Assembly: GCA_003538625.1 (NCBI GenBank)
Contig: DPRR01000014.1
Location: forward strand, 24,945 to 88,944
From: Ignavibacteriales bacterium
Lineage (GTDB): Bacteria; Bacteroidota; Ignavibacteria; Ignavibacteriales; Ignavibacteriaceae
Direction of reading: 5' to 3'
Length of the DNA stretch: 64,000 nucleotides
The notes beneath the pieces are model-generated. The model made no database searches and was not told the origin of the DNA. It worked only from the letters and a program-made list of their open reading frames with translations. A program made the position numbers and the translations under genes. Positions 6,818-48,396 of this stretch are shown piece by piece (within the stretch, counting starts at the first letter, position 1; each line of letters begins with the position of its first letter).

Positions 6818-7102
6818 TTAATTTAAGTTTCTCTCGGATAAGTATTTTAAAATATTTTCCTTTTCATCTGCTCTGAGTTTTGCCTTCTTTCCCATTTCAT
6901 TTAATATTTTTTCCCATTCATCTGGTGTGTGCAGTTCCCGATCATAGGCTTTATGGCACGAGGTACATTTGGAAATGTATAAAGATCTACCTGTAGATTG
7001 CTTAGTCGATTCGTCCGACGTTTGATTATTTGAACTGCCGCAAGCTGTAATAAAAACTAGTAATGAAGTTAAAAGAAAAATTGAAAATACTTTATCTATC
7101 AT
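6818..7102 (-). CDS. Small lipoprotein with a single CXXCH haem-binding motif (monohaem c-type cytochrome-like)
   Basis: 94 aa. Lipobox LVFITAC and motif KCTSCHKAY. Its start overlaps the stop of the upstream barrel gene by 4 nt. Confidence 0.5.
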   Translation of the reverse strand: MIDKVFSIFLLTSLLVFITACGSSNNQTSDESTKQSTGRSLYISKCTSCHKAYDRELHTPDEWEKILNEMGKKAKLRADEKENILKYLSERNLN

Positions 7103-7890
7103 AAATTAATTCCAAGAATCGTTCGAATCTCATAATTTTCATGACCATCCAAATCTAATCCGCTCTTTGTAGCAGGACTACCACCTATCTGTTTTAGAAA
7201 ATTTATAGTAAAATAAAGTTCCTCTGTCTGGATATTAAACGTAGGACCTAAAAATGTCGCCTGGTTTTTTTCAGATTCAAAAATGTCCCGATAATTTCTA
7301 TGATTTGTGAATTCGAGTCCTATTGCAATATTATGGGATAAATCATAAGCCACGCCTGCGGTCAGTTCAAAATTTGATTCGTGTTCATAGTCAATAACTT
7401 TTCTTTCAATTTCAGCATTAAGATTAATTACAGTTATAATGTCGCCTATTCTTTTTGACAGAATAATTTTTGGTTCATATTCGAGTTCAGCGCCACCGTA
7501 AGAAAACTCAAAGTACAAAGCCGGATCAATAAACAATTCACCAGGGTCACTCAGCCTGTATCTGAGCTCAAGTGAAGATGATGAAAACTCGAGTGGATTC
7601 GAATTAAAGCTATTCTCAGATGCAGTAACTTGATTAAAATTGAAATAAAAGGAAGTCGTAAGCCGATCGGTTGCACCGTACTCTAACTCAAAACGTGGCT
7701 GCATTCTATAATAGTAACCCTCAGTCTTTCCGATTCGCATAGTGTTCCAAACTTCGATCTCCATCGCTCTTTGAGGTAATGTATTTGCCAGATACGAACG
7801 AGTAAAGTATTTTCTATCTGCATAGTTATTTGTGCTTAGTACGAATAACATTAAAACGCTTGAAACAAAAAAAGTAATCCTGTTAGTCAT
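7099..7890 (-). CDS. Putative outer-membrane beta-barrel protein
   Basis: 263 aa with a signal peptide. It shows alternating amphipathic beta-strand pattern with aromatic girdle residues, and the C-terminus ends in aromatic/hydrophobic residues (TILGINL). No family was recognised. Confidence 0.45.
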   Translation of the reverse strand: MTNRITFFVSSVLMLFVLSTNNYADRKYFTRSYLANTLPQRAMEIEVWNTMRIGKTEGYYYRMQPRFELEYGATDRLTTSFYFNFNQVTASENSFNSNPLEFSSSSLELRYRLSDPGELFIDPALYFEFSYGGAELEYEPKIILSKRIGDIITVINLNAEIERKVIDYEHESNFELTAGVAYDLSHNIAIGLEFTNHRNYRDIFESEKNQATFLGPTFNIQTEELYFTINFLKQIGGSPATKSGLDLDGHENYEIRTILGINL

Positions 7891-8200: not shown

Positions 8201-8515
8201 TTAATGTACGTCCCGCATTGGAAATATTGTATCCAATTTGACCTTAGATAAAATTTCTTTGACCTTGTTAGTCACACCAACCAACTCAAAGTTTGCGTTA
8301 CGATTAGTTGTAGTTGTAAATGCGTGCACAAGCATTCCAATAGCCCAGCTTGTCACATACTCTACATTAGATAGATCGATTACAATTGAATGAATTCCTT
8401 TGTCGAGAGTATTCAAAACATAATCCTGAAACTCAACACCTTCTGTACCTAAAAGTTGTTTCTTGTTGAATTTTATTAAAGTTGAATTTCCTTGATCGCT
8501 AGTGCTAATTTCCAT
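8201..8515 (-). CDS. STAS-domain anti-sigma-factor antagonist (SpoIIAA/RsbV-like)
   Basis: 104 aa. IDLSNVEYVTSWAIGML aligns to the DLSxVxxxDSxGLG motif with Ser retained at the phospho-site. It is the last gene of the co-directional array. Confidence 0.75.
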   Translation of the reverse strand: MEISTSDQGNSTLIKFNKKQLLGTEGVEFQDYVLNTLDKGIHSIVIDLSNVEYVTSWAIGMLVHAFTTTTNRNANFELVGVTNKVKEILSKVKLDTIFPMRDVH

Positions 8516-8689: not shown

Positions 8690-11600
8690 CTATTTAAACT
8701 TTATTACAACAAACGACACATCATCATCAGGCTCTATTCCGTTAATCCATTGAGAAGCCGAATCTTTTAAATGTCCAATTATTTCATTGGGACTTTTTTG
8801 TGCGACAGATCTAAATTCTTCTTTAACTCTTGTATAACCATATTGCTCATTATTTTCATTCTTTAGTTCTGCAAATCCATCACTCATAAGTAAAAGTGTA
8901 TCACCCATTTCATATCTGATCTCTTTGAGTGAATAATTCGTATTCTTCATTCCGCCCAATGGCAAATTATTACTAACAAACTCACCGGCTTTTTGAGATT
9001 TATTTCTAAAATAAATTAGCGATGGCATTCCAGCATTTGTTGCAATTAATTTTTCAGAATTAATTTGAACACCAATCAATGGCATCATCAATCTACCAAG
9101 GTGCATTTCTTTTATTGAGTTATTTGAGTTTTCAAAAAATTGTTTTAATTCAATATTCTTTCGATTCGAAATGAAGAACGATTTCATAATAGATACCATC
9201 ATGCCCGACATCATACCGTGCCCTGTAGCATCACCAGCCAGAATAGTTAGTGTTCCATTATCATCAACATTAAAATCATAATAATCACCTCCAACTTCCG
9301 TTGCAGTTTTCATATAAACAGCAATATCAAGATGTGGTAATTTAGGAAGCTCTTTTGGAAGCATTGATAATTGCAACTGACGTGCGTCTTCAAGCTCTTT
9401 TGTTTTACGTTCATTCTCCGCTTGAATTATTCTATTCTGAGCTTCTGCCTGCTTCAAATCGTTAAAGCGTGTATAAGTGAGATTAAAAACAGCTGCGAAT
9501 CTTTCCAGTAATTGAATTGTCTCCGGCTTTGTTTCGTCAGGGGATGCTACACCGATAAATCCTTTAGTAAAATAAGCAATGTTTTGTATTCTGCGTTTTT
9601 GTGAAAACCCTTCTTTGAATGGAACATTTAGTCTACTAAGATGACTAAAATATTTTTCAAGCTCTTCCCCCTGCAAATCAAGAATAATCGATTTCTTTTG
9701 TTCTTTCCAGCCACTGTACATTTTTCTAAATGAAATATTTTCATTCAGGTTGATAGTAAAACCAGTGCTTACTTTACTTCCATCTTCATCTGTTACCCAG
9801 AATTCGGCAACCTCCGTTTCATCTTTGATGATAGCGATATAAATCCGGTTAGGTTCAATGCCGAGATTTATTAATTGCTTAAATACAACTGCAGAGGTTT
9901 CTGTAAGTTCATCACTTTGCTGCATCGCCAATGTTTTTGCTCTAACTCTTTCTAATGCTGCTTCAATCTGTGCTTCTCTTGCTTGTGCTTCAGCTTTCTG
10001 TAAGTCAAGAAAACGGGTATATGTTTGATTAAAAACCAGCGAAAAACGTTCCAGCACATCAATTTTTTCTACAGATAGAGCCTCAATCGTAGACATCATA
10101 ATAAATCCCTGCGAGAAAAATCCTACACTGTGCACTCTGCGATTCTCCTTTAATACGTCTTCATTTATAAACATTTGCATTTCCTCACGCACATATCTAA
10201 TCCATTCATTTAATTCCAATCCTGAAAGATCTATAACTACTGATCGCTTTTTTGCTTTCCAGTTACCGTAAATTTTTGACCAGGTGGTTGGTTCATCAAT
10301 ACTTGGTTTAAATATGTGAGTGATTTGATTTCCAACCTGGTCTGTAGACCAGAGTTCAATAGATCTGACATCCTCTTTCATGATACCGATAGTTATTCGA
10401 TCCGGGATATATCCTAATTCATTAAGTTGTTGAAAAAGAACTGCTGCTGTTTCAGCCAGCTCCTCACTTTTTTGCATCGCCATTGTTCGAGATCGAACCT
10501 TTTCCAATGCTGCTTCTATTTTCGCTTCCCTTGCCTGAGATTCAGCTTTTTGCAGATCGAGAAAGCGCGTGTATGATTGTTCAAATACAACAGCAAATCG
10601 TCTGAATATATTATTCTCTTCTTCAGTATAGATTATCGATGCATAGTTGCCAATGATTAACATGATTGTTGGCATAAACACAATTGTTCTTGTATAATTA
10701 TTGTTTAAGATGTAGTCTTTTGTTTTTTCGGGTAAATATTTGAATATAGAATTTTCAAACACATGCTGATGCCACTGCCTGCTTTCCTCTATTGATAATG
10801 TATCTGTGTATATACTAAGATTATTATTTTGTACATTTCTTATTCTTTCAAACATAGGATTATTCAGATAAGGGACATGAATTTTATACGGACGAGGTAA
10901 GCCGGTAGCTGATATCCAGAAGTTATAATCATGAGTTTGGTTTCTTATAGCAAAACTTACGTTATCGAAATTAAAATTTAAAAGCTGGAATTGTTTTGCC
11001 AGAATAGTAATTACCTGAAGAAGTTCTTCACTACGTTGCATTGCCATAGTTCTGCTTCTCACTCTTTCCAATGCTGCTTCTATCTGCGCTTCTCTTGCTT
11101 GTGCTTCTGCTTTTTGCAAATCAAGAAAGCGGGTGTAGGTTTGTTGGAATACTTTTCCAAATCTCATAAGCGTGGCATTCTCATCATCTGAATAAGGAAT
11201 ACCCGAAAAATTTTCGATGTACAATCCAACATTTTCTAACAATACCGTTGATCCTGCGAGTCCGGGACAACTAAAATAAAATTCCTTTGCTTGCGCCGGC
11301 AACCCGGGGATATACTCAAAAAGTTTTTGATAAAACCTGTTTTTTTCTTCAAAACTCAAATTGGTGGCAAAGAAATCCTCTCCTTTTTCTTTTGCTTCAT
11401 TAAAACGATTGTAGTACACAGAATCAAAATACGGAATTGTTATCTTGGCGGGGACCCCAAGCGGGTCAGCTACCCAAATATTGTAATCATCTCTTATCTT
11501 ATAATCCATAACAAACCCTGCATGCTCAACAAGTATATTTAAATGAGCAAATTGTTCATAAACAATCTGAATTACGTCCTTGAGTTCTTCGCTTTTTTGC

Positions 11601-13309
11601 ATACCCATAGAACGGCTACGCACTCTTTCCAATGCAAGTTCTATTTGTGCCTCTCTTGCCTGTGCTTCTGCTTTTTTTAGATCGAGAAAACGGGTGTAGG
11701 TTGGTTCAAATACTTTGGCAAACCGTTTTAAAATATCATGTTCCTTTTCCGAAAATGTTCTGTCAGAGTAGCTATGTATACTGATGCCGATATTATTTGC
11801 TATTCCGACAGACAGGCACCAGCCTTCAGCGGCAAGGATCATTTTTTTTCTTTCATCCGGCAAGTCCTTATAATCAGAATGTTCATAGAGATAAGAGAAG
11901 TAGGCGTCTTTTTCTTCTTTCGGATAAATCTTACTGAGAAGATCCTGTTTGCTTTTAACAGCATTAAAAATATCATTCATAACAGGGGTGTCGAAATAAG
12001 GTGTATACAGGCAAACGGCTTTGGTATATCCGGGGGCTGTAAACCAGGAATCAAAACCTGTCAGGTCATCATTCAATATGTTAATATTAATTGCATCAAC
12101 ATCAATTTCCAGGTCTTTCATTTGACCGAATAATGTCATTACTACATCATTCAGTTCTTCACTTTTTTGCATCGCCATTGTTCTTACACGAACTCTTTCA
12201 AGCGCTAATTCAATTTCAGCCTCTCTTGCCTGTGCCACAGCTATTTCAATATCCAGATACCTTTGATATGCCAGTTCGAATACTTTAAGGAATCGCTTAA
12301 ATAAATATATTTCTGCTTCCGTTAGAAGAATGTAAGTTGAAATTCCAAGTGCAACCGGACCCAGGGAGAACCAATAATAATTTAGTGACGAGGCAGTTTC
12401 GAGGTACTCGTCAATAAAAACATTTGTCGTTTTTTGATAGTTAATCCAGTCTTTTACGTCATCGCCATTTATATGTGTGATAAAGGTTTCTCTCTTGCCC
12501 TTCAGCATTTTTGCCGCAAATTCTTTATGCATTTCATGGTTTGTATATGAAGTTTCTGTAATAAAGGTTTTGTCGTGCTTAGCATAATATTCATAATTCA
12601 TATAAGTGCCGCGCTGCTCATAAAAGATAGCTGTTTGCACATTACGAATTTCCTTTACCCCCAATGAATGGAGTTGAAGTGAAATTGTCTTGCACACATC
12701 CAGCATATCATCTGGTTTCCTCATCCCCATCGCGATAGTACGTACTTTTTCTAATGCAGTTTCAATTTCTAGCTCTCTATTTTTAATAAGTAAGTCGGCA
12801 GTTTTCTCTTCAACCGCTTTTTGTAATACAGCATTTTTTTTCTTCCACTCGTCAACATGCCAGGGATCATCACCACCGGAAATATGCTCCGGCTTAGAAC
12901 CATGCCAATGAATAAGTTTCCACGATCCATCTCTAAATTCAAATATAGTTGACATTCTTACCGCTAACTCATTAGACTCACCTTGAAATCGTGTGAGCAA
13001 TACGATTTCATCAACAACCACAGCAGTATTTCCATTGTCAGAGATGCGGCTTATTACGGGCTTCGAAGTAAAACTAAATTCGTCAAAATTTACGGCTTGT
13101 TCCCGTTGATCAATTATAAGGTCTCTAAAATCCTGAATAGACGTAATCTTTTCATCCTGAGCTGTACCATAACCCATTACATTTTCGTCTATGAATTCAG
13201 AAACATTTTCAAGAGAACCTTCACCGAATCCAACTTCAAGTAATCTTTTATATGCTGCTTTCAGAGATTTTTCTTTATCTGCTAAGCTAAAGTTTGTTTT
13301 AGATTTCAT
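8690..13309 (-). CDS. Giant cytoplasmic multi-module PP2C/SpoIIE phosphatase (NTF2-like N-domain, six tandem ~185-aa modules, SpoIIE)
   Basis: 1539 aa with no signal peptide or TM segment. The C-terminus has GGDYYDF, GDATGHGMMSG, SDGFAEL and PDDDVSFVVIKFK. Internal helix motif YTRFLDLQKAEAQAREAQIEAALERVR recurs every 184-190 aa. Confidence 0.85.
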   Translation of the reverse strand: MKSKTNFSLADKEKSLKAAYKRLLEVGFGEGSLENVSEFIDENVMGYGTAQDEKITSIQDFRDLIIDQREQAVNFDEFSFTSKPVISRISDNGNTAVVVDEIVLLTRFQGESNELAVRMSTIFEFRDGSWKLIHWHGSKPEHISGGDDPWHVDEWKKKNAVLQKAVEEKTADLLIKNRELEIETALEKVRTIAMGMRKPDDMLDVCKTISLQLHSLGVKEIRNVQTAIFYEQRGTYMNYEYYAKHDKTFITETSYTNHEMHKEFAAKMLKGKRETFITHINGDDVKDWINYQKTTNVFIDEYLETASSLNYYWFSLGPVALGISTYILLTEAEIYLFKRFLKVFELAYQRYLDIEIAVAQAREAEIELALERVRVRTMAMQKSEELNDVVMTLFGQMKDLEIDVDAININILNDDLTGFDSWFTAPGYTKAVCLYTPYFDTPVMNDIFNAVKSKQDLLSKIYPKEEKDAYFSYLYEHSDYKDLPDERKKMILAAEGWCLSVGIANNIGISIHSYSDRTFSEKEHDILKRFAKVFEPTYTRFLDLKKAEAQAREAQIELALERVRSRSMGMQKSEELKDVIQIVYEQFAHLNILVEHAGFVMDYKIRDDYNIWVADPLGVPAKITIPYFDSVYYNRFNEAKEKGEDFFATNLSFEEKNRFYQKLFEYIPGLPAQAKEFYFSCPGLAGSTVLLENVGLYIENFSGIPYSDDENATLMRFGKVFQQTYTRFLDLQKAEAQAREAQIEAALERVRSRTMAMQRSEELLQVITILAKQFQLLNFNFDNVSFAIRNQTHDYNFWISATGLPRPYKIHVPYLNNPMFERIRNVQNNNLSIYTDTLSIEESRQWHQHVFENSIFKYLPEKTKDYILNNNYTRTIVFMPTIMLIIGNYASIIYTEEENNIFRRFAVVFEQSYTRFLDLQKAESQAREAKIEAALEKVRSRTMAMQKSEELAETAAVLFQQLNELGYIPDRITIGIMKEDVRSIELWSTDQVGNQITHIFKPSIDEPTTWSKIYGNWKAKKRSVVIDLSGLELNEWIRYVREEMQMFINEDVLKENRRVHSVGFFSQGFIMMSTIEALSVEKIDVLERFSLVFNQTYTRFLDLQKAEAQAREAQIEAALERVRAKTLAMQQSDELTETSAVVFKQLINLGIEPNRIYIAIIKDETEVAEFWVTDEDGSKVSTGFTINLNENISFRKMYSGWKEQKKSIILDLQGEELEKYFSHLSRLNVPFKEGFSQKRRIQNIAYFTKGFIGVASPDETKPETIQLLERFAAVFNLTYTRFNDLKQAEAQNRIIQAENERKTKELEDARQLQLSMLPKELPKLPHLDIAVYMKTATEVGGDYYDFNVDDNGTLTILAGDATGHGMMSGMMVSIMKSFFISNRKNIELKQFFENSNNSIKEMHLGRLMMPLIGVQINSEKLIATNAGMPSLIYFRNKSQKAGEFVSNNLPLGGMKNTNYSLKEIRYEMGDTLLLMSDGFAELKNENNEQYGYTRVKEEFRSVAQKSPNEIIGHLKDSASQWINGIEPDDDVSFVVIKFK
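9425..12754 (-). repeat. Intragenic tandem array of six ~185-aa protein modules (about 555-nt period)
   Basis: The LE(K/R)VR anchor falls at aa 186, 370, 560, 747, 935 and 1119, and a seventh degenerate helix at about aa 1285-1300 leads into the PP2C domain. The DNA copies differ mainly at wobble positions. Confidence 0.8.
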
Positions 13310-14292: not shown

Positions 14293-15456
14293 TTATTTTT
14301 CTTTTAATACCACCAGGCAACAGGTATTATTATGATAATCATATTTACCGGTTTTTGATTTTCCATATTCACCATAGGAAAAAAAGCCTGCCATAGGTGC
14401 ATCCCAGATTTTTTGCACCTTCTCTATCTCCTCCTTTACTATCATACCAAACGCTAAATGCCTGCTCACACATGAAAACATAATAAGTGCATCGGCTTCT
14501 TGTTGTGCTTCATCTTTAATATTTTTACAGTCTGCAACCACTTTTTCAATGGAATCAAAATCAGGCGGCATGGAAAATTTAATTTTTGAACCCTGAGGCA
14601 CTCTTCCGGAACAGATCAGTGAACGGTCTTCCTTATTGGCGAACATGGCTGTGCGTATTACGGGATCTTCATTTTCCCTTTCCAGTTCCAGTGGATAGTA
14701 CCAAGAGCTAAGGAATGTCGTGATGTCCGTCTCCACATCCTCTTTGATATCCACACCCAGGTAATTCATTAACATATCCAATGCTGGTTTATCGTTGATG
14801 GTATACACAATATTACCTTCGCTTTTAGTAACTGTTTTTGTGGTGCCAATAGCTTTCCAGCCACAAGTAGCTATACCTCTAACATCTATTTTATCTTCAT
14901 CAATAATGAGTGCTACAATTGCGCAGTCTTTACTTTTGCCGTTGGTAAAAACAAATGTTGATTCAAGTGCCAAATCATCTCCCGCCTTACCTCCAAATAT
15001 CGTTACTTCCCTTTCTGCCGACGAGGGAGGTTTTCCAAAACTTTGTATGATGCCTTCAACAATTGGCTCACCATCTAAGGACACCCCACTGTTTGCAATA
15101 ATAAACGCTGGGTTGGCAAACGTTTCTTTTCCGGTAATGCCCAGTTTGTTTGCGTCTTCTAAGGCGGTTTCCTGGCTTGTTTCAAGAAATTCTATTTTAA
15201 AATAAGCTGGATGCATGTCGAGCAACATCATGACTATGCTGCCTCCTTCAATTTCGCCATCAATAAATTCCCCGGCAGTTGTAACACCAAATACCTGAAA
15301 GCCTTTTTCGTCAAGTAATTTGGAAATAGTTTCTCTGTCCTGTTTAACAGATAAGAACACAACAGCTAAAGTTGGTTTGAATCCATCAGCCATGCTTTCA
15401 GTTAATGCAGAACTGATTTCTTCTGTAGATTTTCCTTTAATTGTTTTTGCTTTCAT
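14293..15456 (-). CDS. FIST-domain (FIST_N + FIST_C) sensory protein
   Basis: 387 aa. N-terminus MKAKTIKGKS...GFKPTLAVVFLSV and C-terminus GFFSYGEYG...HNNTCCLVVL fit stand-alone FIST proteins. It lies 8 nt upstream of the short phosphatase. Confidence 0.75.
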   Translation of the reverse strand: MKAKTIKGKSTEEISSALTESMADGFKPTLAVVFLSVKQDRETISKLLDEKGFQVFGVTTAGEFIDGEIEGGSIVMMLLDMHPAYFKIEFLETSQETALEDANKLGITGKETFANPAFIIANSGVSLDGEPIVEGIIQSFGKPPSSAEREVTIFGGKAGDDLALESTFVFTNGKSKDCAIVALIIDEDKIDVRGIATCGWKAIGTTKTVTKSEGNIVYTINDKPALDMLMNYLGVDIKEDVETDITTFLSSWYYPLELERENEDPVIRTAMFANKEDRSLICSGRVPQGSKIKFSMPPDFDSIEKVVADCKNIKDEAQQEADALIMFSCVSRHLAFGMIVKEEIEKVQKIWDAPMAGFFSYGEYGKSKTGKYDYHNNTCCLVVLKEK

Positions 15457-15554: not shown

Positions 15555-16355
15555 TTATGAATTTTTTAATGGTTCTTCATCTATGTCTTCATCAATAAAT
15601 TTAATTAGTTTTTGTATTTCTGCATAAAGTGATTCATATAAATTAAGAATACCAAAGTTATTCATTGCCGCTAATCTGAGCCCATTTCTGATAGTCATAT
15701 CTTTTAAGAAGATTGCTACTTGAGACGCAAGTTGTTTTCTTTTATCCTCTGATATTTCAATATTAATTCGTGTTTTTTGCTTTATTGTTCTTTCAAAATC
15801 CAAAAATGGACTGATTTCAAGAATAGGCCAAGTGCGATCATATAAGTAGTTATCGTATTCATGTCTCATATGCTCACGATAAATTACTATCGTTTCATTT
15901 TTTTCTTTAATACTTAACAAATAGAATTTAATAGAATCATTTTTAATAATGTTTAAACTTCCCGAGCTAATCAATTCATCTAACGTATTTGTTCGCGGTG
16001 TAAAACTTGTCCATCCATAAACTTTCCATAATAGTCTGTCAAATGATTTTAATTGGTCTATTGTTTTTGGTGGTTGAAGTGTTAATAATGTATTTGCTGA
16101 AAACATTTTATTACGCCGATCAACTATCATTGAATCCAAATTAACTAAATCAGTTTTTAAATCAAGTTTTAGATTTTTAAGATATTTTATTTCATTGTTT
16201 CTTTCTTTTCTCGCTTCATTCCAATTATTAACCTGAAGAGCTAAAAGAATTCCAACCATAACCAAAATTATTTCCCCAATGGCGTAACGTAAATAGCTTG
16301 CTACTTTGTTTTCAGCTGCGAGTTTTTGTCTGATATTTCTAAAGAATCTTATCAT
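15555..16355 (-). CDS. Single-pass membrane protein, DUF6090-like
   Basis: 266 aa. N-terminus FFRNIRQKLAAENKVASYLRYAIGEIILVMVGILLALQVNNWNE matches, from memory, the conserved head of a Bacteroidota-wide uncharacterised family. Confidence 0.5.
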   Translation of the reverse strand: MIRFFRNIRQKLAAENKVASYLRYAIGEIILVMVGILLALQVNNWNEARKERNNEIKYLKNLKLDLKTDLVNLDSMIVDRRNKMFSANTLLTLQPPKTIDQLKSFDRLLWKVYGWTSFTPRTNTLDELISSGSLNIIKNDSIKFYLLSIKEKNETIVIYREHMRHEYDNYLYDRTWPILEISPFLDFERTIKQKTRINIEISEDKRKQLASQVAIFLKDMTIRNGLRLAAMNNFGILNLYESLYAEIQKLIKFIDEDIDEEPLKNS

Positions 16356-16402: not shown

Positions 16403-17542
16403 TTATCTTTCTTTCATCACTACAATGCAGCAGGTATTGTTATGAAATTCCTGCTTGCCCTTTAAAGAATTTCCGATTTCACCATAACAGAAAAACCCCG
16501 CCATTGGAGAATCCCAAACATCTTTAACTTCTTCAATCTCTGATGACACTAATGGACCTAATGAATAATATCGACCAATGCAGGAAAACATAATCATTGC
16601 CTCTGCTTCAGGTTGAAAAGTTTCTTTTAAATATCTGCATTCTTCGGTAACCTGCTGGATTATGTTATTATCGGGAGGTAAAGAGAATCTGATTTTTGTT
16701 CCACGTGTTACCGGCCCTGCAAGTAATATTGATCTTTCTTTTGTGTTTAGATTTCTTATAGCTCTGGTAATAGTACTTCCATCGTCCCTCATCAATTGTA
16801 TGGGATCCATATTTCCTACATTATTAATTAATTCATCCCCGGGATAATCTTCTAAAGAAATTCCCAAAAACTTGACCATAATATCCAATGCAGGCTCATC
16901 ATCTATTGTGTAGACCTTACATTCCTCACAATCGGTTATTGTACGTATTGTTCCGATAGGCTTCCAGCCGTGAGTAGCAAGCCCCGTTAATTGTATATTG
17001 TCATTGTCAACTATGAGTGCAATAATTCCGTCTTGAGTGGATTTGTCATTTGTAAATAAATGTGTTTCAGTGCCACGTAATTCATCTCCGGCAATACCCC
17101 CATATATAATTGAGTCTTTACCTGAAGTGCTGTTTATTCCACTGATGATTGTTTCGCCATCAATTATAGAGCCCCCTGTTGCAACAAGATAAGACGGATT
17201 AGAAAATTTTTCCAGACCCTTTTTACCAATTTCTGCAGCAGTTCTCAACTTACTTTTTCCACTTCTTTCTTCGATGTGAACTAAAAAATTATTTTTATCC
17301 ATATCAAGTAAAAGAATTGCCGCCGATTCTTTCTCTAATTCTCCATTAATAAATTCTCCTGCAGCAGTCGATCCAAATATCGCAATCCCATTTTCATCAA
17401 ATACTTTACAAATAGAATCCCGGTTTATTTTAACAGATAAAAATATTATAACCAAGGTAGGTTTAAATCCATCAAACATACTTTCGGATAAAGCTAATCG
17501 AATTTCTTCAGGAGAATTTCCTTTAATTGATTTTGATTTCAT
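16403..17542 (-). CDS. FIST-domain sensory protein (paralog of 14293..15456)
   Basis: 379 aa, colinear with the other FIST ORF. Shared strings include MKSKSIKGNSPEEI...GFKPTL and HNNTCCIVVMKER. Confidence 0.75.
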   Translation of the reverse strand: MKSKSIKGNSPEEIRLALSESMFDGFKPTLVIIFLSVKINRDSICKVFDENGIAIFGSTAAGEFINGELEKESAAILLLDMDKNNFLVHIEERSGKSKLRTAAEIGKKGLEKFSNPSYLVATGGSIIDGETIISGINSTSGKDSIIYGGIAGDELRGTETHLFTNDKSTQDGIIALIVDNDNIQLTGLATHGWKPIGTIRTITDCEECKVYTIDDEPALDIMVKFLGISLEDYPGDELINNVGNMDPIQLMRDDGSTITRAIRNLNTKERSILLAGPVTRGTKIRFSLPPDNNIIQQVTEECRYLKETFQPEAEAMIMFSCIGRYYSLGPLVSSEIEEVKDVWDSPMAGFFCYGEIGNSLKGKQEFHNNTCCIVVMKER

Positions 17543-17693: not shown

Positions 17694-20600
17694 TTACTTC
17701 ACCTTTATCACAACGAACGTAACATCATCATCTGGCTCCTGGCTATTTGTCCAGCTTCTGGCTTCTGCTCTTAAATGTGTGATAATTTCTTCTGGTTCTT
17801 TCTTTGCTGATTCTTCAAAACTGTTCCTTGCTCTTTTGTATCCGTATAATTCTCTGTTTGCATTTTTCAATTCCGCAAAGCCATCGCTCATAAGTAATAA
17901 TGTATCACCTCTATCTACTTTAAATTCCTTTACATCATAAACCACTTCCTTCATTGCACCTAATGGCATATTATTAATAACAACTTCTTCAATGGTTTGA
18001 GAATTGTTTCTGTAAATAAAAAGCGGTGGCATACCGGCATTTGTTGTTATAATTTTATTATTGCTTATCTGAACACATGTAAGCGCCATCATCAGTCGTC
18101 CAAGCTGCATATCTTTTATTGCTGCACTTGCATTTTCGAAGAATGGTTTAAGTGCCTTGTTTGTTCTATCTGACATGAAAAGAGATTTCATAATTGAGAC
18201 CATCATCCCGGACATCATTCCATGTCCGGTTGCATCACCAAGGACAACGGTTAATGTTCCATCCATATGAACATGAAAATCATAATAATCACCGCCAACT
18301 TCTGTCGCAGTTTTCATAAATACGGCAATATCAAGATGTGGAAGACTTGGCAGTGACTTGGGAAGCATTGAAAGTTGAAGCTGTCTGGCTTCTTCAAGTT
18401 CTTTTGTTTTTCTATCATTTTCTAACTGCAGGAATTTTTTATTTTCATTTTCTTTTCTTCTCTCTAGCTCGTACTTTCTTATTCCAACTAAACCAAGAAC
18501 AACAGAAATGAGATAAAAGGAATATGCCCACCATGTTCGCCAGATCGGGGGATTGACTTTGAATGAATATGCAGCTTCATTTGTTTTAACGCCGTTAGAT
18601 GTTATGCCGCGAACTTTAAATGTGTATTTACCAAAAGAAAGATTTTGGTATTCTGCAAAGGACAGCGTACTTGCTTTAGACCAACCCTTATCAAAGCCTT
18701 CAAGAAAATGTTCATAAGTTGTTTGTTTTGGATCTTTGAAATTCAATGCAGCATAACTGAAAATAAAAGAATTTTGAGAGTATGGCAATTCATTTGGAAA
18801 ATTATAATAATGGGATTGCCCGCTAATAGATACAGATGAAATTAATAATGGATAACTTTTTTCTTCACTCTTATTAATGTAAAGACCAACTCCGTTATAA
18901 AACTCAATCATATTTCCCAATCCATCCATTGCAGATATATAGGGACCGCCGCTTGCGACACTTTCGTCATGATAAAAAGTTTGAAATTTATTTCCATTTA
19001 TTTTTAATGCACCGGATGGAGATGAGAAATAAACATTACTTCTGATATCATCGATCACAGGATTTGAAAGATTAGTGGATAGAAGTCCATTCTTTTTTGT
19101 GTAAAAATTTAAATTAGTACCGTCAAAAATTACAAGTCCTCTGCCTCTAAGCCTTATATATAAATTATCTCCTGCCTGAATCTCTGTCTGTGTTCCGGCA
19201 ACACTTGCACCCTTTAAAATTCGGAAATCTGCATTAGCATTTACGCTATCACTAAGATTTATAAATTTGTTTCCGTTAAAAACATAAAAACCTCCCACTG
19301 TTAAAAAGTACATTCCATTTTTTAAGTTACCTACAAAATGCAATTGCTCTGTCGGAACGTTCCAGCTTTCCGGAGGTTTTGACCATGATTTCCCATCGTA
19401 CATCATTATTTTAGATTGTACTGAAGTTATATCTTTTATATTATCTGAGAATAGGCCAAAAAGCCAAAGCCTTCCATCATTATCTTCCCGAAGATCAAAC
19501 AGCTGATATTTTTTGCTGTTATCATCATCATTAAAAGGTGAGTTAATTTTTACAAACTTTTCCCCCTCAAATCTCCCCAGGTAATAATCAGCTTTAATAA
19601 GATCAGTTTCAGCCGGTCTTACATAATTTTGCCATGCATAAATATCACCATTCTTTGTTTCCATAATATCTGAAGTATTATAAGATTTACCATCCTGGTT
19701 TGGAACAGAATTAATTTTAAATATTTGTTCGTCCTCGCTGTTTTTAATTTCGCGAACGATTGTCAAACCTTTTGAGGTGGTAATCCAAATTCTTTTTTTA
19801 CTGTCCTGAAATATTTGGAAAGTAATATTGCTTGCAAGTCCATCTTTTTCTGTAATTGTTCGTAATTTTTTCCCGTCCCAAATGTTTATTCCCACGCTTT
19901 CAGTTTTAGCATAAGCCGGTAAATTGCTGTACGAATATGATAGCCAAACTAAACCATTATAATCAGTATAAGGGGTCACAATACCTGATTGTGTAACTAA
20001 TAGACCTTCCTTAGAAGTGAGCATTTGAGAATAGTTTGGATAATAAATTCCAATGCCTTTTGAAGTTTTCATTGCAACACCGTCGCTTAATGCGATTCCT
20101 GGTGCTGATTCAAATGAATCAAATTTTTTCCATTTGTTATCTGTAAATGAAAAAAGTTGGTTAGGATATTTTGAACTTTGATTTTGGGAAGTAACTTGAA
20201 ATACAAGCCGTTCCGGAAAGTAATTACTGGATTTCAGAAAAAGCACACTCTGGTATTTAAAGTCATTGATTACTCTATCCGTCTTCAGATCTCCGATAGA
20301 ATTAATTTCCTTTAAAATATTAGAGACCTTCCATTTTCCATTTTCAATTTCAAAAACACTTTTATTATTTCCATTAAAAATTTCACCATCTCTAATTAAA
20401 GTTGTCATGAACAACTTATCCATTTTTGTACTATAGTATACTTGAATTGGAAATTGATTCCTTTTAAGCAGATTCTTGAATTCTGTGAATTGATAAAATT
20501 TATTACCATCATACATCAAAACTCCGGAATATTTTTCAGATCCCTCTGAACCACTTATAACACCGGAACAAGCCAGCCATGTATTCCCGTCTTTATCGAT

Positions 20601-21344
20601 TGTTGTTACATTTTCCGTAGGGTATATATTTGCATTCTGCAAATTTATGCCAACTGATTCATCAATTCTTTTGAACACTCCATTTTTAAATAAAGCAACA
20701 TTCGAACCTTCGCGCGTTTGAGTATTATGACCGGCAGAATTAAATATAAGATCACCATACGGTGTTTCAATAAAGTCAGTTGCATTATCCAGTGGAAAAT
20801 TTTTAGAGTCATAGACAGTAAATTTATTATCTTCGAATTTTGTAAGACCACCATTATTATTTTTGTCTACGAATGGTGTTGAAGAACCAATCCATATTCG
20901 CCCCTTACCATCAGCTTTAACAAATGTTATTAACTGTCCTGATAATCCATTTATCTTATAACCTTCTTTTTCCGTATATACTTTAAATTCAGTTCCATCG
21001 AATGTTATAAATTTAGCAGGTGAAGCAAAGTACATTATATTTTTTGTCGAATCATAATACATATTTTGCATTGTGGGTAATCCAATATCAGTGCCCACTT
21101 CTTCAAATTCATATCCATTAAATCTGTAAGTTCCTTCAACGCTGGAAATCCAAATGAAACCATCTTTAGTTTGAATTCCATTTGATAGATTTGTGGTAGG
21201 CAATCCTTCTTTGTTGGTGTATTCAACAATATCCGCATTGGCTTCAGTTTTTAGTTTCTGCTGTGATATTATTGAAGATGAAAAAACAAATATCAAAAGG
21301 GCTATTAGATTCTTAAAAAATGTTACTTTCATAAAACTCACCAT
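17694..21344 (-). CDS. Periplasmic beta-propeller/Y_Y_Y sensor fused to TM, coiled coil and PP2C/SpoIIE phosphatase (divergent propeller)
   Basis: 1216 aa with a signal peptide and degenerate propeller repeats. Y_Y_Y-type FLEGFDKGW...YTFKVRG, juxtamembrane PPIWRTWWAY plus TM, ENDRKTKELEEARQLQLSMLPK, and a SpoIIE domain with GDATGHGMMSG. Confidence 0.85.
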   Translation of the reverse strand: MVSFMKVTFFKNLIALLIFVFSSSIISQQKLKTEANADIVEYTNKEGLPTTNLSNGIQTKDGFIWISSVEGTYRFNGYEFEEVGTDIGLPTMQNMYYDSTKNIMYFASPAKFITFDGTEFKVYTEKEGYKINGLSGQLITFVKADGKGRIWIGSSTPFVDKNNNGGLTKFEDNKFTVYDSKNFPLDNATDFIETPYGDLIFNSAGHNTQTREGSNVALFKNGVFKRIDESVGINLQNANIYPTENVTTIDKDGNTWLACSGVISGSEGSEKYSGVLMYDGNKFYQFTEFKNLLKRNQFPIQVYYSTKMDKLFMTTLIRDGEIFNGNNKSVFEIENGKWKVSNILKEINSIGDLKTDRVINDFKYQSVLFLKSSNYFPERLVFQVTSQNQSSKYPNQLFSFTDNKWKKFDSFESAPGIALSDGVAMKTSKGIGIYYPNYSQMLTSKEGLLVTQSGIVTPYTDYNGLVWLSYSYSNLPAYAKTESVGINIWDGKKLRTITEKDGLASNITFQIFQDSKKRIWITTSKGLTIVREIKNSEDEQIFKINSVPNQDGKSYNTSDIMETKNGDIYAWQNYVRPAETDLIKADYYLGRFEGEKFVKINSPFNDDDNSKKYQLFDLREDNDGRLWLFGLFSDNIKDITSVQSKIMMYDGKSWSKPPESWNVPTEQLHFVGNLKNGMYFLTVGGFYVFNGNKFINLSDSVNANADFRILKGASVAGTQTEIQAGDNLYIRLRGRGLVIFDGTNLNFYTKKNGLLSTNLSNPVIDDIRSNVYFSSPSGALKINGNKFQTFYHDESVASGGPYISAMDGLGNMIEFYNGVGLYINKSEEKSYPLLISSVSISGQSHYYNFPNELPYSQNSFIFSYAALNFKDPKQTTYEHFLEGFDKGWSKASTLSFAEYQNLSFGKYTFKVRGITSNGVKTNEAAYSFKVNPPIWRTWWAYSFYLISVVLGLVGIRKYELERRKENENKKFLQLENDRKTKELEEARQLQLSMLPKSLPSLPHLDIAVFMKTATEVGGDYYDFHVHMDGTLTVVLGDATGHGMMSGMMVSIMKSLFMSDRTNKALKPFFENASAAIKDMQLGRLMMALTCVQISNNKIITTNAGMPPLFIYRNNSQTIEEVVINNMPLGAMKEVVYDVKEFKVDRGDTLLLMSDGFAELKNANRELYGYKRARNSFEESAKKEPEEIITHLRAEARSWTNSQEPDDDVTFVVIKVK

Positions 21345-21505: not shown

Positions 21506-24500
21506 TCACTTAACTTTTATAACTACAAACGTTACATCATCATCAGGTTCATTACCGTTTGTCCACCTTGAACCGATCTCTTTCAGATAAGTTATAATTC
21601 GTTCCGGTTCTTTTTCTGCAACTTCTTCAAATGAATTCTTTGCACGTTTATATCCGAACAATTCTTTATGCTGATTTTGTAATTCAGGAAATCCATCGCT
21701 CATTAATAAAATTGTATCTCCTGTAAACAATTCCATTTCTTTTAACTCGTAAGGAAAGTTATCCATTGTTCCCAAGGGCATACCTTCCATTAAATGTTCT
21801 TCAATTATTTTATGCTTATTTCTGAATAGAAAAACAGGCGGCATACCTGCAGCAGACATAATTAATCTGTTATTTTGAATCTTCAGCATGGTCATTGACA
21901 TAGCAAGTGATTGAAACTGCATCTGCTTGATACATCTTGTCATTTCACGGAATGTAAAAAGTATATCGGGATTAGCAGCATAACTATTAAATAATGATTT
22001 AGCAGAAGTAACCATCGTTCCCGCTCTCATTCCATGACCGGTCGCATCCCCGATTACAACAGTTAATGTTCCATCCATTCCAACATTAAAATCATAATAA
22101 TCTCCACCAACTTCCGTAGCGGTTTTCATAAAAACAGCAATATCAATATGTGGTAATTGCGGCAGCAATTTTGGAAGCATAGAAAGCTGCAACTGACGTG
22201 CTTCCTCCAATTCCTTTGACTTGCGTTCATTTTCGGTTTCCGCGAGTTGAGCACGCAGATTAGCTTCTTTAATTGCCGCAGCATTACGTTCTTTGTTTAC
22301 AATTCTTCTTCTTTGGACTCTGTCTATTCCGAAAACAATACCTATAAAAAAGAAAAAGTAACCTATGTAGGCAACAGTGGTTCTCCACCAGGGAGGATTG
22401 ATAATAATTCGAATTGCCTTTCCTACATCATTCCAGATTCCATCTCCGTTGGAACCCTTAAATCTAAATGTATAATCACCTGGGTTTAGATTTGTGTAAG
22501 AAGCAAAATTTCTATCTGCAGCTATCCAGTGATCATTAAATCCTTCAAGCATATATATGATTTTATTTTTTTCCGGTCTTGAAAAATGAATGGAAGCAAA
22601 TTCAAAGGAAATATTATTCTGAGTATAAGAAAGAACTAACTCTTCAGTTTTCATTATACCTTTTTCCAATTTGATATCAGATGAATCTGATTTAAGTGAT
22701 ATTTCGGAAACCTTTATATCGTTAATAACTATATCAGGTTTTACTTCATTTATCTTTCCGGGATAGAAATGAGTTATACCATCAATTCCTCCTAAAAATA
22801 TCTCGCCATCTTTACTGATCCAGTTTGCTTTGCTTGTTGTAAAACCTTGTAGCCCGTCACGCGTATCAAAATTGACAAAGTTCCATTTGTCCTTCGTGGT
22901 ATTTTTATTCAGTTTGGATAATCCGGCAGATGTATTTATCCAAAGATTTCCTTCAAGATCTTCTATGATGGAATTTATCTGATTGGATGGCAGTCCATCT
23001 TTTTGATCATACTTATCAATTTTTTCTGTTTCAGGATCAAATCTTAATAAACTATTTGCGGTTGCTATCCAAACTATTCCTCTACTCTCCTCAAAAATGC
23101 AATTAATATAATTATTGGGAGAAAAAATATTTTTCGAATCAAAATTGTATTGCTTAAAATTTTGTTCGGCAAGATCATACTTAAAAAATCCGCTGATAGT
23201 AGAACCTAACCATACGACATTATTGAACCTCTTACTAAATTCAAAACAAGTTCCAACTTCCATTGGCATAAATTTATCAGAACTAATTTCTTTTTCATTC
23301 ATTTGATTAATGGCGTTGTAATCAGATTCATTCAAACTTATAACCTGAATTCCATACCAATTAGAATCCGGAGGTGCAATTGCATTCCAGGTTCCATAAG
23401 AATGACCAACGTCTGTAGCAAATGTAATTTTATAATCACCCTTCTTAAGGTCCAAACATCCAAGCGCAATACGGTTTTTAAAAGCTCCACCGTCATTAAA
23501 GGTTTTAAATAAGTTATTCATTGACCAGACTGTTTTTCCATTTCCGGTCAAAAGGGATCCTGCATCAGTAACACCCAAACCAACATTCATTTCACCTTCA
23601 CCAACACAAATAACCAAAACTTTTTGACCCTGATTTAATGAGAATGTTTTTTCTAAATTAGATGCTTCACCAACTTTTAAAATTGAGGCTATGCTTTTAC
23701 CGGATTCTGATACTTCATGTATTTTTTGTTTAAGATTCTCACTCATTGTCTTATTCATAATCGTAGGTAAGAGTGTATATTTATTTTTAGCAGGATTATA
23801 TCTCTCAAAACCCTGTCTTGATGCCATCCAGATATTACCGATCAAATCTATTTTTATAGAGTTTATATAATAAACTGAAGTTTTATTTTCGTTAGGTGAT
23901 TTAAATGTACTTAACAAATTATTTTTATCAATTTTGTGCAAACCTAGATTATTATATGCGAACCATTTATTCCCTTCATTATCTATAGCAAGACCTTGAA
24001 TATTTATCTTCTCATCTGAATCGTTAATTTTGCCGGGATTAAAATTCAATTTAGCAGATTTTTGATTTTCGAGATTGTAAGTGAATAGTCCCTTCTCAGA
24101 TGTTCCGATCGTTATCTCCTTACTTTGACTTATCCCGGCAATTACAGTAGAAAAATTTGCATTAGAATTTACGATATCATTGGTGATGAACTTATGGAAG
24201 TTAAATGGCTCTCTGAGGGGATCAAATTTTGTAACACCTTTCCCCCAAATCCCAATCCAGATTACTCCATATCTGTCTTTATAAATATTCGAAATAATAT
24301 TGCGGCCGAAGTTGTTTAATTCATAAATATTGTAATCAAATTTCTGAATGTTTTTTGTCTTCGGTTCAATTCTATATAGTCCTTGTGAATAAACCCCCGC
24401 CCATAAGTATCCTTCATCATCCTGAGTTATTCCTGTAACGTTATCGTAGCTGGTGGGGTTTTTTATTAAGCTAAATAAATCGTAACTGTCGATAGTGTAA

Positions 24501-25276
24501 AAAGACGGCGAATATCTTATTAATTGGTTCCTGCCACCGAACCAGATATTGCCGGATGCGTCTTCATATATAACCTGGAGTTCTTTCGGATTAAAATTTG
24601 TTTTGAGGTAATATGGCTGAAATACATTCTGTTTTTCATTATATATTTTAATACCGTTTCCATAATCAGCGACTAATATACTACCGTTTTTTAATTCTGT
24701 TATACTGTAGATATTACCCCATTGAACATTATTATTAGAAACTTCAAGAGGCACCTGTTTAAATTTGTTTTTTGATCTATTAAATTTTTGTATTCCATGA
24801 TTTGTGGATCCGAACCATAAATTTCCTTTAGAATCATAAAGAGCCGAATAAAAGTACGAGATGTTAGTTACACCGGCTGTTTCTATGCGGTAGCTTTGAA
24901 AGGTTTCATTTATTGGATTGTATCTTGCAATAGAATTCCCGGAAACACCTACCCAGATATATCCATCTGCATCCTCTGCAATTGCAGAACATTCATTAGT
25001 TGGAATAGTAGTAGAATCATTAGGGTCGTTTTTAAATACTTTTATACTATTTCCGTCATATCTGTTTAGTCCATCTGATGTTGATATCCAGAGGAATCCG
25101 TTGCTATCCTGAAAAATATAATTAACTGTAGAATTCGAGAGCCCTTCAGGCACCGAGATATTTTCAAAAAGGTAATTTCGTTGTTGTGCGTAACTTGAAG
25201 AAGCTAAGATGAAACTTAATATCACAAATAATAACTGCGATAATTTTCTTGTTCTAAACATTGGATTCTTATTCAT
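21506..25276 (-). CDS. Periplasmic two-propeller/Y_Y_Y sensor fused to TM, coiled coil and PP2C/SpoIIE phosphatase, with an extra inserted domain
   Basis: 1256 aa with a signal peptide and repeats of the type D..G.LWI(G/S)T..GL.RYD. YMLEGFNDHW...YTFRFKGSNGDGIWN, PPWWRTTVAY plus TM, ENERKSKELEEARQLQLSMLPK, and a SpoIIE domain with GDATGHGMRAG. Confidence 0.85.
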   Translation of the reverse strand: MNKNPMFRTRKLSQLLFVILSFILASSSYAQQRNYLFENISVPEGLSNSTVNYIFQDSNGFLWISTSDGLNRYDGNSIKVFKNDPNDSTTIPTNECSAIAEDADGYIWVGVSGNSIARYNPINETFQSYRIETAGVTNISYFYSALYDSKGNLWFGSTNHGIQKFNRSKNKFKQVPLEVSNNNVQWGNIYSITELKNGSILVADYGNGIKIYNEKQNVFQPYYLKTNFNPKELQVIYEDASGNIWFGGRNQLIRYSPSFYTIDSYDLFSLIKNPTSYDNVTGITQDDEGYLWAGVYSQGLYRIEPKTKNIQKFDYNIYELNNFGRNIISNIYKDRYGVIWIGIWGKGVTKFDPLREPFNFHKFITNDIVNSNANFSTVIAGISQSKEITIGTSEKGLFTYNLENQKSAKLNFNPGKINDSDEKINIQGLAIDNEGNKWFAYNNLGLHKIDKNNLLSTFKSPNENKTSVYYINSIKIDLIGNIWMASRQGFERYNPAKNKYTLLPTIMNKTMSENLKQKIHEVSESGKSIASILKVGEASNLEKTFSLNQGQKVLVICVGEGEMNVGLGVTDAGSLLTGNGKTVWSMNNLFKTFNDGGAFKNRIALGCLDLKKGDYKITFATDVGHSYGTWNAIAPPDSNWYGIQVISLNESDYNAINQMNEKEISSDKFMPMEVGTCFEFSKRFNNVVWLGSTISGFFKYDLAEQNFKQYNFDSKNIFSPNNYINCIFEESRGIVWIATANSLLRFDPETEKIDKYDQKDGLPSNQINSIIEDLEGNLWINTSAGLSKLNKNTTKDKWNFVNFDTRDGLQGFTTSKANWISKDGEIFLGGIDGITHFYPGKINEVKPDIVINDIKVSEISLKSDSSDIKLEKGIMKTEELVLSYTQNNISFEFASIHFSRPEKNKIIYMLEGFNDHWIAADRNFASYTNLNPGDYTFRFKGSNGDGIWNDVGKAIRIIINPPWWRTTVAYIGYFFFFIGIVFGIDRVQRRRIVNKERNAAAIKEANLRAQLAETENERKSKELEEARQLQLSMLPKLLPQLPHIDIAVFMKTATEVGGDYYDFNVGMDGTLTVVIGDATGHGMRAGTMVTSAKSLFNSYAANPDILFTFREMTRCIKQMQFQSLAMSMTMLKIQNNRLIMSAAGMPPVFLFRNKHKIIEEHLMEGMPLGTMDNFPYELKEMELFTGDTILLMSDGFPELQNQHKELFGYKRAKNSFEEVAEKEPERIITYLKEIGSRWTNGNEPDDDVTFVVIKVK

Positions 25277-45013: not shown

Positions 45014-45275
45014 TAATTCCACCATTTTCTAAATCTTGTCAATATGCAACTCCAAACTGCTTAGTGATATCCAACCGGATTAAACACAACATTTTCGTAC
45101 GATTCAGATTCAATTAAATACTCAGTAAAAAATTCATTAAGAATAATGTAGTAATTCCAATCCGCTCAAATAATCCAAACATTTGCGAGAATAGTGCAAG
45201 ATAACTGCGAACCGATATCTTACTTTTGCATCAATCAAAAATTATAAACTATTTCGACTCCCAAGATATAAGATC

Positions 45276-45719: not shown

Positions 45720-45747
45720 TTTTCAATTTATATAAATAGTAATTAAG

Positions 45748-46266: not shown

Positions 46267-46314
46267 GTATTCAATAATGGTTCTAATTTACAACAATCAA
46301 AAGGAGCAGGTGCT

Positions 46315-46749: not shown

Positions 46750-46787
46750 AATTAAAAATTCTTATAAAACAATTATTAGAGGATTAA

Positions 46788-47231: not shown

Positions 47232-47303
47232 ATTGTTTGCTTATGATTTAAAGGTGATTAATTGTTCTTAATAAATAATTTTTTTTAAAAAGGAATATGT
47301 TTT

Positions 47304-47771: not shown

Positions 47772-47871
47772 TCATTATTTTAATTTATTTTTTTTGAATA
47801 TACAGGCAGTGAAATATCTGCCTGTTCATTTTAAACCGGGAACTATTTAATAATATAATGAGCAGTAGACA

Positions 47872-48354: not shown

Positions 48355-48396
48355 AATATTAAATAGGACAATTAAATAATAAAAGAAATTAGCATT

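Follow-up and report, generated by a model that had tools for sequence, protein, structure and literature searches.

What are the six repeated modules that precede the phosphatase domain of a 1539-residue protein from an Ignavibacteriales bacterium, and how might they control that domain? The gene lies on the minus strand at 8690..13309 of the window, by which we mean the whole 64,000-nucleotide stretch of contig DPRR01000014.1 that was analyzed, and its product (HCY75521.1) is deposited as a "hypothetical protein" of a metagenome-assembled genome (MAG). We consider that the gene probably encodes a cytoplasmic multi-input serine phosphatase of the PPM/PP2C type, which acts in a partner-switching pathway and is controlled through a helical spine. 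The anatomy behind this reading, i.e., an NTF2-like cap, GAF-fold modules, continuous helices, a PP2C domain with its motifs, and an adjacent STAS gene, is supported by structure prediction and comparison. The features of the protein are listed below, where model 2 is the predicted structure of modules 5 and 6 together with the PP2C domain.

8690..13309 (-), whole open reading frame (ORF), 1539 residues, ATG start: SnoaL_3, six GAF-like modules, and PP2C phosphatase
12893..13258 (-), SnoaL_3/NTF2-like N-terminal domain, residues 18-139: Pfam SnoaL_3, E 2.4e-11
12239..12796 (-), module 1, residues 172-357: hidden Markov model (HMM) E 5.6e-44; "first-position" subtype, cluster G
11669..12244 (-), module 2, residues 356-547: HMM E 3e-67; module alignment
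11108..11674 (-), module 3, residues 546-734: modelled module, predicted GAF fold (AlphaFold2 and Foldseek)
10544..11113 (-), module 4, residues 733-922: HMM E 4e-65
9992..10549 (-), module 5, residues 921-1106: HMM E 3.7e-63; secondary-structure order as in module 3 (model 2)
9440..9997 (-), module 6, residues 1105-1290: HMM E 5e-61; "last-position" subtype, cluster J
9929..10072 (-), inter-module helix (example), residues 1080-1127: DSSP of model 2 (H160-207) and conservation
9365..9523 (-), output helix, residues 1263-1315: DSSP of model 2 (H343-395)
8696..9259 (-), SpoIIE/PP2C (PPM) phosphatase domain, residues 1351-1538: Pfam SpoIIE PF07228, motifs, and Foldseek

Pfam models recognize only two domains in the protein, SnoaL_3 and SpoIIE, and the first of these agrees with the NTF2/SnoaL fold that the initial annotation, made by eye from the sequence, had read in the N terminus. 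The LE[KR]VR anchors of the six modules claimed there are found at residues 186, 370, 560, 747, 935, and 1119, with a spacing of 184-190 residues, and cutting at these anchors gives six segments of 186-192 residues that align almost without gaps at 22-43% overall identity. The entry helix of module 1 is ...LLIKNRELEIETALEKVR. A degenerate seventh copy of the repeated motif, YTRFNDLKQAEAQNRIIQAENERK, begins near residue 1288 and leads into the PP2C linker, as had also been described. No transmembrane segment or signal peptide is apparent from hydrophobicity and the secondary structure of model 2; all hydrophobic segments coincide with predicted β-strands (the most hydrophobic window with those of module 4), and the N terminus is charged. 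These properties fit a soluble protein, in line with the cytoplasmic phosphatase that had been proposed.

The modules themselves are invisible to annotation searches. The scans covered the whole protein, each module, eight homologues, and 57 diverse modules; no Pfam or NCBIfam family was found for residues 172-1290, whether the protein was scanned whole or module by module, and Pfam GAF, GAF_2, and GAF_3 match neither the six modules of the window nor the 57 diverse modules, even at E ≤ 1. A summed GAF_2 score of 31.6 bits was obtained in a 2654-residue homologue (P0307) only, with no single significant stretch, and a search of the PDB sequences with the module profile gave nothing below E 0.3. 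At the level of structure, the AlphaFold2 model of module 3 (residues 546-734), which was built from a 57-sequence alignment (A2), has a predicted local distance difference test (pLDDT) score of 94.9, a predicted template modelling (pTM) score of 0.89, and the element order H-H-E-E-E-H-E-H-H-E-E-H. The 32 best matches of this model in a Foldseek search against the PDB all contain GAF domains (best match 3ci6, E 7e-6; TM scores of 0.5-0.6, identity of 5-14%), and include the PtsP GAF domain (3ci6/3trc), a dual-sensor kinase (6oap), the CyaB2 tandem GAF (1ykd), phytochromes, and fRMsr. A PAS or other sensor fold is ruled out by these matches. The predicted structure thus supports the assignment of the modules as very divergent GAF-fold domains of the sensor type, which belong to the GAF superfamily by fold and lie outside the Pfam GAF families by sequence.

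The initial annotation had written "GAF/PAS-like?" for modules joined by signalling helices to one catalytic domain, and had proposed a Foldseek comparison of single modules; what is predicted is a GAF fold, continuous helices, and a PP2C domain like those of RssB, SiaA, and RsbU. It had also allowed that the modules might turn out to be a well-known repeat of such phosphatases. This is correct for the GAF-PP2C architecture, which is known, and incorrect for the modules, which match no GAF sequence model.

DUF7951 was considered as the identity of the module and rejected, because its score is 18.2 bits against a cut-off of 27 and the match covers residues 1069-1152, i.e., the linker region; in homologues it reaches 25-26 bits with no significant single stretch. 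Sub-threshold matches to DUF7951, DUF2388, RNA_pol_N, DCC1-like, and adh_short/3-hydroxybutyrate dehydrogenase all fall on the repeated linker helix and are treated as spurious. The same helix sets off spurious Pfam matches, Peptidase_M3_N among them, in homologues such as P0058, P0301, P0330, and P0342, and such matches have spread to public names (e.g., "DNA-directed RNA polymerase subunit N" and "coenzyme F420-reducing hydrogenase delta subunit").

How is conservation distributed between the modules and their connector? The module HMM, built from the 57 diverse modules, recovers six full-length copies in the ORF (E 6e-44 to 3e-67) and has zero matches among the remaining ORFs of the window. 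Over the 53 linker columns the mean pairwise identity is 64% for the six modules and 75% for modules 2-6, whereas over the 137 core columns, taken from profile-anchored positions, it is 17% and 19%, respectively. The cores within the protein are 9-32% identical to one another, and that of module 1 is 9-16% identical to the others. Across 2043 modules from 260 proteins, the information content of most columns is 2-4.3 bits in the linker and 0.4-1.6 bits in the core; the R of LERVR, the Met six positions further on, and the R, D, and A of YTRFLDLQKA are nearly invariant in the linker, and the positions conserved in the core are occupied by Gly, Trp, Leu, and Pro. The earlier statement that the helix is far better conserved than the module interiors is therefore borne out both within the protein and family-wide. 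The two subtypes distinguished by eye (modules 2-4 and modules 5-6) hold only loosely: core identity is 32% between modules 5 and 6, 21-26% among modules 2-4, and 9-18% between the groups.

A repeat of this kind might also arise from collapse or expansion during assembly. Repeats are well known to cause assembly errors, and the sequence comes from a MAG. The DNA of the five canonical linkers, however, is only 60-76% identical, the longest exact run in common is 25 nucleotides, and in a pair of linker copies 13-19 of the 30-43 codons for identical residues differ. Moreover, the cores are as divergent as described above, each module is of a different subtype, the exact 1539-residue protein occurs on three contigs of 50-200 kb that were read separately, and at least six homologues of 1523-1557 residues likewise have six modules each. 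Diverged repeat DNA, the exact protein on three contigs, and six-module homologues together argue that the repeat is not an assembly artefact; we reject this explanation, which the initial annotation had raised, as extremely improbable.

The same DNA comparison bears on a second alternative, in which the conservation of the helix would stem from processes at the DNA level, such as recent duplication, gene conversion, or selection of the linker as a recombination substrate for shuffling. Module number does range from 2 to 18 in the family, and the arrays of homologues are mosaics of common subtypes in differing orders (P0271 and P0281). Such processes are difficult to reconcile with linker DNA that has diverged to 60-76% identity with its 13-19 synonymous codon differences per pair and exact runs of at most 25 nucleotides, or with the same linker peptide being kept in Ignavibacteria, Chitinophagaceae, and Flavobacteriaceae. 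The retention of one peptide across these groups despite synonymous divergence indicates that conservation acts on the protein, and the synonymous differences further indicate that the repeats are old and have been held similar by selection at the protein level. A DNA-level origin of the conservation is thus very unlikely, and a standard connector may instead be what renders shuffled products functional.

What does the conserved helix look like in structural terms? In model 2 (residues 921-1539; pLDDT 85; alignment of 22 sequences), modules 5 and 6 fold as module 3 does. Module 5 is joined to module 6 by a single 48-residue helix (residues 1080-1127), and module 6 to the PP2C domain by a single 53-residue helix (residues 1263-1315), both as assigned by DSSP; equivalent inter-module helices are centred on the LE(K/R)VR anchors at residues 370, 560, 747, and 935. 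In the models, the conserved helix is made up of the last GAF helix, a short connector, and the extra N-terminal helix of the next module, and the fused helix is followed by a four-residue break and then by the first core helix. The output helix continues the last helix of module 6 through the degenerate seventh motif into the N-terminal linker of the PP2C domain (..AENERKTKELEDARQLQLS). The pair of modules 5 and 6 aligns to the tandem GAF domains of CyaB2 (1ykd) over 398 columns (E 4e-8).

The signalling helix (S-helix) spans about 40 residues, has conserved polar positions in its core, and lies between sensor and output domains, PP2C included (PMC1592074). The 48- and 53-residue helices are of the length described for an S-helix between two signalling domains (about 40 residues). 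The family linker resembles the S-helix of Anantharaman, Balaji and Aravind (2006, PMC1592074) in its length of about 40-50 residues, its position ahead of a kinase, PP2C, or cyclase domain, and its conserved polar ..ERVRSRT.. stretch. It differs in having SRT, ART, or AKT in place of the "ERT" triplet (the linker reads ..LERVR(S/A)(R/K)T.., which keeps R-T and replaces the E), in being fused seamlessly to the terminal helices of the GAF domains, and in recurring up to 18 times per protein.

The module cores were clustered at 35% identity, which gave about 200 clusters, roughly 50 of them recurrent. In this scheme the protein of the window reads G. B X Q J, i.e., each module is a different subtype. 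Subtype G stands first in 37 of 39 occurrences, whereas C stands last in 78 of 80 and J in 31 of 38; A, B, E, F, H, I, M, and X are internal. Modules of the same subtype as module 1, 2, 3, 5, or 6 occur elsewhere, also in Chitinophagaceae kinases and other phyla, at 40-91% core identity, and those like module 1 (41-91%) hold the first position in their own proteins. If the modules of the window protein are numbered 1-6 and other modules are written x, homologous phosphatases have the orders 1-2-x-3-x-x (P0287), 1-3-x-x-5-6 (P0281), and 1-x-5-x-3-x-6 (P0271). Shared subtypes in different orders show that the arrays are mosaics drawn from a common library. Since the modules are of different subtypes, each conserved across proteins, several distinct signals are most likely integrated, and the integration of several inputs would be the most economical reading of the array.

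The C-terminal domain matches SpoIIE PF07228 with E 2.9e-25 (89.8 bits against a cut-off of 25), which places it in the SpoIIE/RsbU branch. The motifs GGDYYD, GDATGHG, SDG, and DDD, which we take to be the metal-binding motifs of PPM enzymes, are intact, and this retention marks the domain, as far as sequence can tell, as a putative active PPM enzyme rather than a pseudophosphatase. Foldseek matches of the PP2C part of model 2 are RssB (3f79/3f7a, including the linker form 3f7a), SiaA (6k4e, TM score of 0.85), Rv1364c, SpoIIE, and RsbX. The genes around the phosphatase are as follows.

8201..8515 (-), STAS anti-sigma-factor antagonist, 104 residues: Pfam STAS, E 1.7e-12; TIGR00377
13313..14284 (-), short SpoIIE phosphatase, 323 residues, 3 nucleotides upstream of the long gene
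14293..15456 (-), FIST_N + FIST_C sensor protein, 8 nucleotides upstream of the 323-residue phosphatase gene
16403-17542 (-), second FIST_N + FIST_C protein: domain scan
17694-21344 (-), SpoIIE phosphatase with Reg_prop/Y_Y_Y sensor region
21506-25276 (-), SpoIIE phosphatase with Reg_prop/Y_Y_Y sensor region
25465-28821 (-), SpoIIE phosphatase with Reg_prop/Y_Y_Y sensor region
29030-30637 (-), SpoIIE phosphatase, 535-residue form
31637-34807 (-), SpoIIE phosphatase with Reg_prop/Y_Y_Y sensor region

The STAS gene lies 174 nucleotides downstream of the long phosphatase gene, and a terminator and promoter scan between the two found no terminator-like site and nothing informative. In PDB alignments, the Ser of its ..VEYVTSWAIG.. 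segment aligns with the Ser of TM1442 in ..VSYMDSAGLG... A phosphorylatable STAS antagonist is thus encoded with the phosphatase, as in partner-switching pathways, and the 104-residue protein is the probable substrate. The association recurs in two of three homologous loci: an Ignavibacterium locus (homologue P0368) contains FIST genes, a 323-residue SpoIIE gene, the long phosphatase, a transporter gene, and a 104-residue STAS gene, and in the locus of homologue P0287 the long phosphatase is followed by a 104-residue STAS gene. The third homologous locus has Reg_prop-Y_Y_Y-SpoIIE paralogues upstream.

Seven SpoIIE/PP2C phosphatase genes run in one direction (-) between 8690 and 34807, with the six-module gene last. 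Their proteins are related through the linker ENERKTKELE(D/E)ARQLQLSMLPK, which six of the seven paralogues contain, as the initial annotation had claimed for the membrane paralogues. The PP2C domains of the 323-residue phosphatase and the long protein share 78% identity, and FIST may serve as a separate sensor for this sensor-less enzyme. The cluster suggests that many sensors feed into a single partner-switching substrate, and related MAGs contain parts of the same arrangement. Several observations in the neighborhood are added here. The two FIST genes flank a DUF6090 gene (15555-16355), and the FIST protein at 14293-15456 has a weak match to the NosP (nitric-oxide sensor) NCBIfam model (66.6 bits against a cut-off of 450). 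A hybrid two-component protein of 1382 residues (40865-45013, +; Reg_prop, Y_Y_Y, HisKA, HATPase_c, receiver, and AraC helix-turn-helix) shares its type of periplasmic sensor region with four of the phosphatase paralogues. Among the scanned ORFs, one STAS gene only (8201-8515) was seen, against the seven phosphatase genes.

How could the modules act on the phosphatase? RsbU is activated upon ordering of its coiled-coil linker and dimerization of its PPM domains, and confident AlphaFold2 dimers with crossing helical linkers have been obtained for RsbP, for the tandem-GAF RsbZ, and for GAF-, PAS-, HAMP-, and receiver-linked phosphatases, alongside crystal structures of RssB (PMC12143880). By analogy with RsbU, RsbP, RsbZ, RssB, and the tandem-GAF enzymes, the phosphatase would dimerize, and its conserved helices would build a continuous helical spine. 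A ligand or partner protein on an individual GAF-like module would alter the rigidity or register of this spine, the final helix would set the dimerization and the switch-helix state of the PP2C domains, and that state would in turn govern dephosphorylation of the STAS protein. Ligand sensing, dimerization, signal integration, and STAS dephosphorylation are all suggested by this analogy. It has been proposed that such linkers allow sensor domains to be exchanged among phosphatases, kinases, and cyclases (PMC12143880), and the family described below displays such exchangeability, as one type of array is followed by HisKA, SpoIIE, or cyclase outputs.

Several observations weigh against a multi-input, spine-controlled phosphatase of a partner-switching pathway. 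The pTM of model 2 is 0.51, which makes the relative positions of its domains unreliable. The heptad count on the linkers is weak, with 53-71% hydrophobic a/d positions in the best register and many alanines. No RsbW-type switch kinase or sigma factor was found in the 23 ORFs of the window scanned with Pfam, although such genes may be located in other parts of the genome. The six further SpoIIE phosphatases nearby could share or compete for the one STAS protein, and the third homologous locus is without an adjacent STAS gene. Finally, no polar pocket residue is common to all modules among the 2043 aligned, and the modules point to no particular ligand.

The last point also favors a different view of the modules, in which they are docking or scaffold units without small-molecule sensing, and the spine is a rigid rod that recruits partners or sets a distance. 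Candidate partners are the FIST proteins, the other SpoIIE phosphatases, and STAS, and control would be exerted by the bound partner instead of a ligand. The Gly, Trp, Leu, and Pro composition of the conserved core, in which no polar pocket residue is kept across subtypes, is consistent with this, as are the helices being the most constrained part, the FIST genes and the sensor-less 323-residue phosphatase as conserved neighbors, and the fusion of FIST as the N-terminal cap in 1 of 64 family members. On the other hand, subtype cores are conserved across phyla (40-91%) and reshuffled among different outputs, which is a better fit to autonomous sensors, and most characterized GAF domains bind small ligands. 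We therefore regard pure docking as unlikely and prefer modules that act as sensory inputs to the phosphatase.

How widespread is this design? The initial annotation had suggested a search for the linker motif in other proteomes; searches with the module profile uncovered a large family. The module profile matches 1433 proteins in a word-indexed protein collection and, among 1.84 billion proteins, 3177 cluster representatives at E ≤ 1e-3 (1907 at E ≤ 1e-30); these have as many as 17 matched stretches and reach 3880 residues in length. A scan of species genomes, seeded with module 3, confirmed the match at more than 500 places. The 80 loci retained from these belong to Chitinophagaceae, Ignavibacteria, Flavobacteriaceae (Maribacter, Eudoraea, Gelidibacter algens, and Lutimonas), Cytophagales, and others, and their module 3-like modules are 63-88% identical to module 3 of the window. 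Complete ORFs in these loci have 2-18 modules, the maximum being the 3616-residue ORF of L007. In this module 3-seeded sample, the C-terminal outputs of 64 proteins are HisKA in 59 (57 with HATPase_c), SpoIIE in 4, and a nucleotide cyclase in 1; the N-terminal heads are SnoaL_3 in 43, TPR in 3, and FIST in 1, and the remainder are mostly short segments of about 72 residues. PP2C-type proteins with 4-11 modules make up 35 of the 120 best full-length relatives of the window protein.

In public records the relatives are called "hypothetical", "nuclear transport factor 2 family", "ATP-binding protein", "sensor histidine kinase", "SpoIIE family protein phosphatase", or "RsbU", and the modules go unmentioned in all of these names. 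Literature searches on the linker peptide, on tandem-GAF/SnoaL kinases in Bacteroidetes, and on partner switching in Bacteroidetes found no description of the family, and arrays as long as these are not described in the literature searched. The window protein is thus a member of a large unnamed family in Bacteroidota and Ignavibacteriota, in which 2-18 modules precede a kinase, PP2C, or cyclase domain. The largest members (L007 6869-17716, L040 6002-15622, and L034 2-10048, the last incomplete at its start) are single ORFs of 3207 to 3616 residues with 17-18 modules, and two or three family genes lie side by side in several loci (e.g., L029, L021, L064, and L077).

Among known systems, the closest are the GAF-domain PPM phosphatases, such as the tandem GAF-PP2C protein RsbZ of C. 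difficile and the GAF/PAS-PP2C protein OsaC of S. coelicolor (Baral et al. 2025, PMC12143880). Like RsbZ, OsaC, RsbU, RsbP, and RssB, the window protein combines sensors, a long helix, and a SpoIIE/RsbU-type PP2C domain; a STAS gene is adjacent, and the PP2C model matches RssB together with its linker. Unlike RsbZ and OsaC, it has six modules instead of one or two, the modules are undetected by Pfam GAF, and an NTF2-like cap is present. The near-invariant connector at every junction sets it apart from the RsbZ, OsaC, and RsbU systems, and, in contrast to RsbU-type systems, no RsbT-like activator or RsbW-like kinase is found among the ORFs of the window scanned.

CyaB2 of Anabaena (1ykd) and the mammalian PDE2/5/10 also have two GAF folds joined by a long helix, and a cyclase output, as in CyaB2, occurs in one member of the family. 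However, the array comprises 6 modules here and up to 18 in the family, and, given about 10% sequence identity to the CyaB2 GAF domains, no motif for binding cyclic nucleotides can be claimed for the modules. In multi-GAF photoreceptors such as All2699, which has three GAF domains (PMC6696110), chained GAF domains likewise stand ahead of a histidine kinase, each as a separate input, and phytochrome GAF domains are among the fold matches of the module. In contrast to cyanobacteriochromes and phytochromes, the hosts are non-photosynthetic Ignavibacteria and Bacteroidota, the connector is different and far more conserved, PP2C is an alternative output, and a bilin-binding motif, for which no search was made, is not claimed.

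Other features of the window were also noted. Three successive NTF2-like genes of 155-160 residues (47304-48879, +; DUF4440, SnoaL_2, and DUF4440), followed by RidA/L-PSP and an MFS transporter, encode proteins that share their fold class with the phosphatase's N-terminal cap. A 1556-residue protein (34926-39596, -) with Laminin_G_3, a right-handed β-helix/NosD region, and Por_Secre_tail is a probable type IX secretion cargo. A 94-residue lipoprotein-like ORF (6818-7102, -) has a CxxCH motif (CTSCH) and a weak DHC (dihaem cytochrome c) match, and is translationally coupled to a 263-residue β-barrel-like ORF (7099-7890). The sign of the GC skew flips at about 40 kb and 52 kb, where the genes also change direction (minus strand up to 40158, plus strand at 40865-52521); coding-strand bias, and not a replication landmark, is the probable cause.

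Since GAF sensors, signalling helices, and PP2C partner-switching phosphatases have all been known before, the gene is not a new kind of system. What is new is that about 1,100 of the 1,539 residues, together with similar regions of thousands of giant proteins, make up a GAF-fold family without a public model, and that arrays of up to 18 modules share one near-invariant connector, positional rules, and mosaicism, whereas the cited comparison systems have 1-3 GAF domains. Defining the domain would correct many annotations and provide separable units of about 186 residues for ligand screening, and the three output enzymes fed by the same arrays offer a test bed for helical linkers as an exchangeable device for signal transmission. 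More tentatively, the modules may be plug-and-play cassettes, i.e., a library of GAF-like domains with one standard connector that are chained 2-18 at a time, in nearly any order, between dedicated first and last modules and the outputs; we hold this to be possible and still doubtful. If it is true, single cytoplasmic proteins would compute on many inputs through one helical spine, and the arrays would represent an unrecognized, phylum-wide design for signal integration in Bacteroidota and Ignavibacteriota and a template for engineered multi-input sensors.

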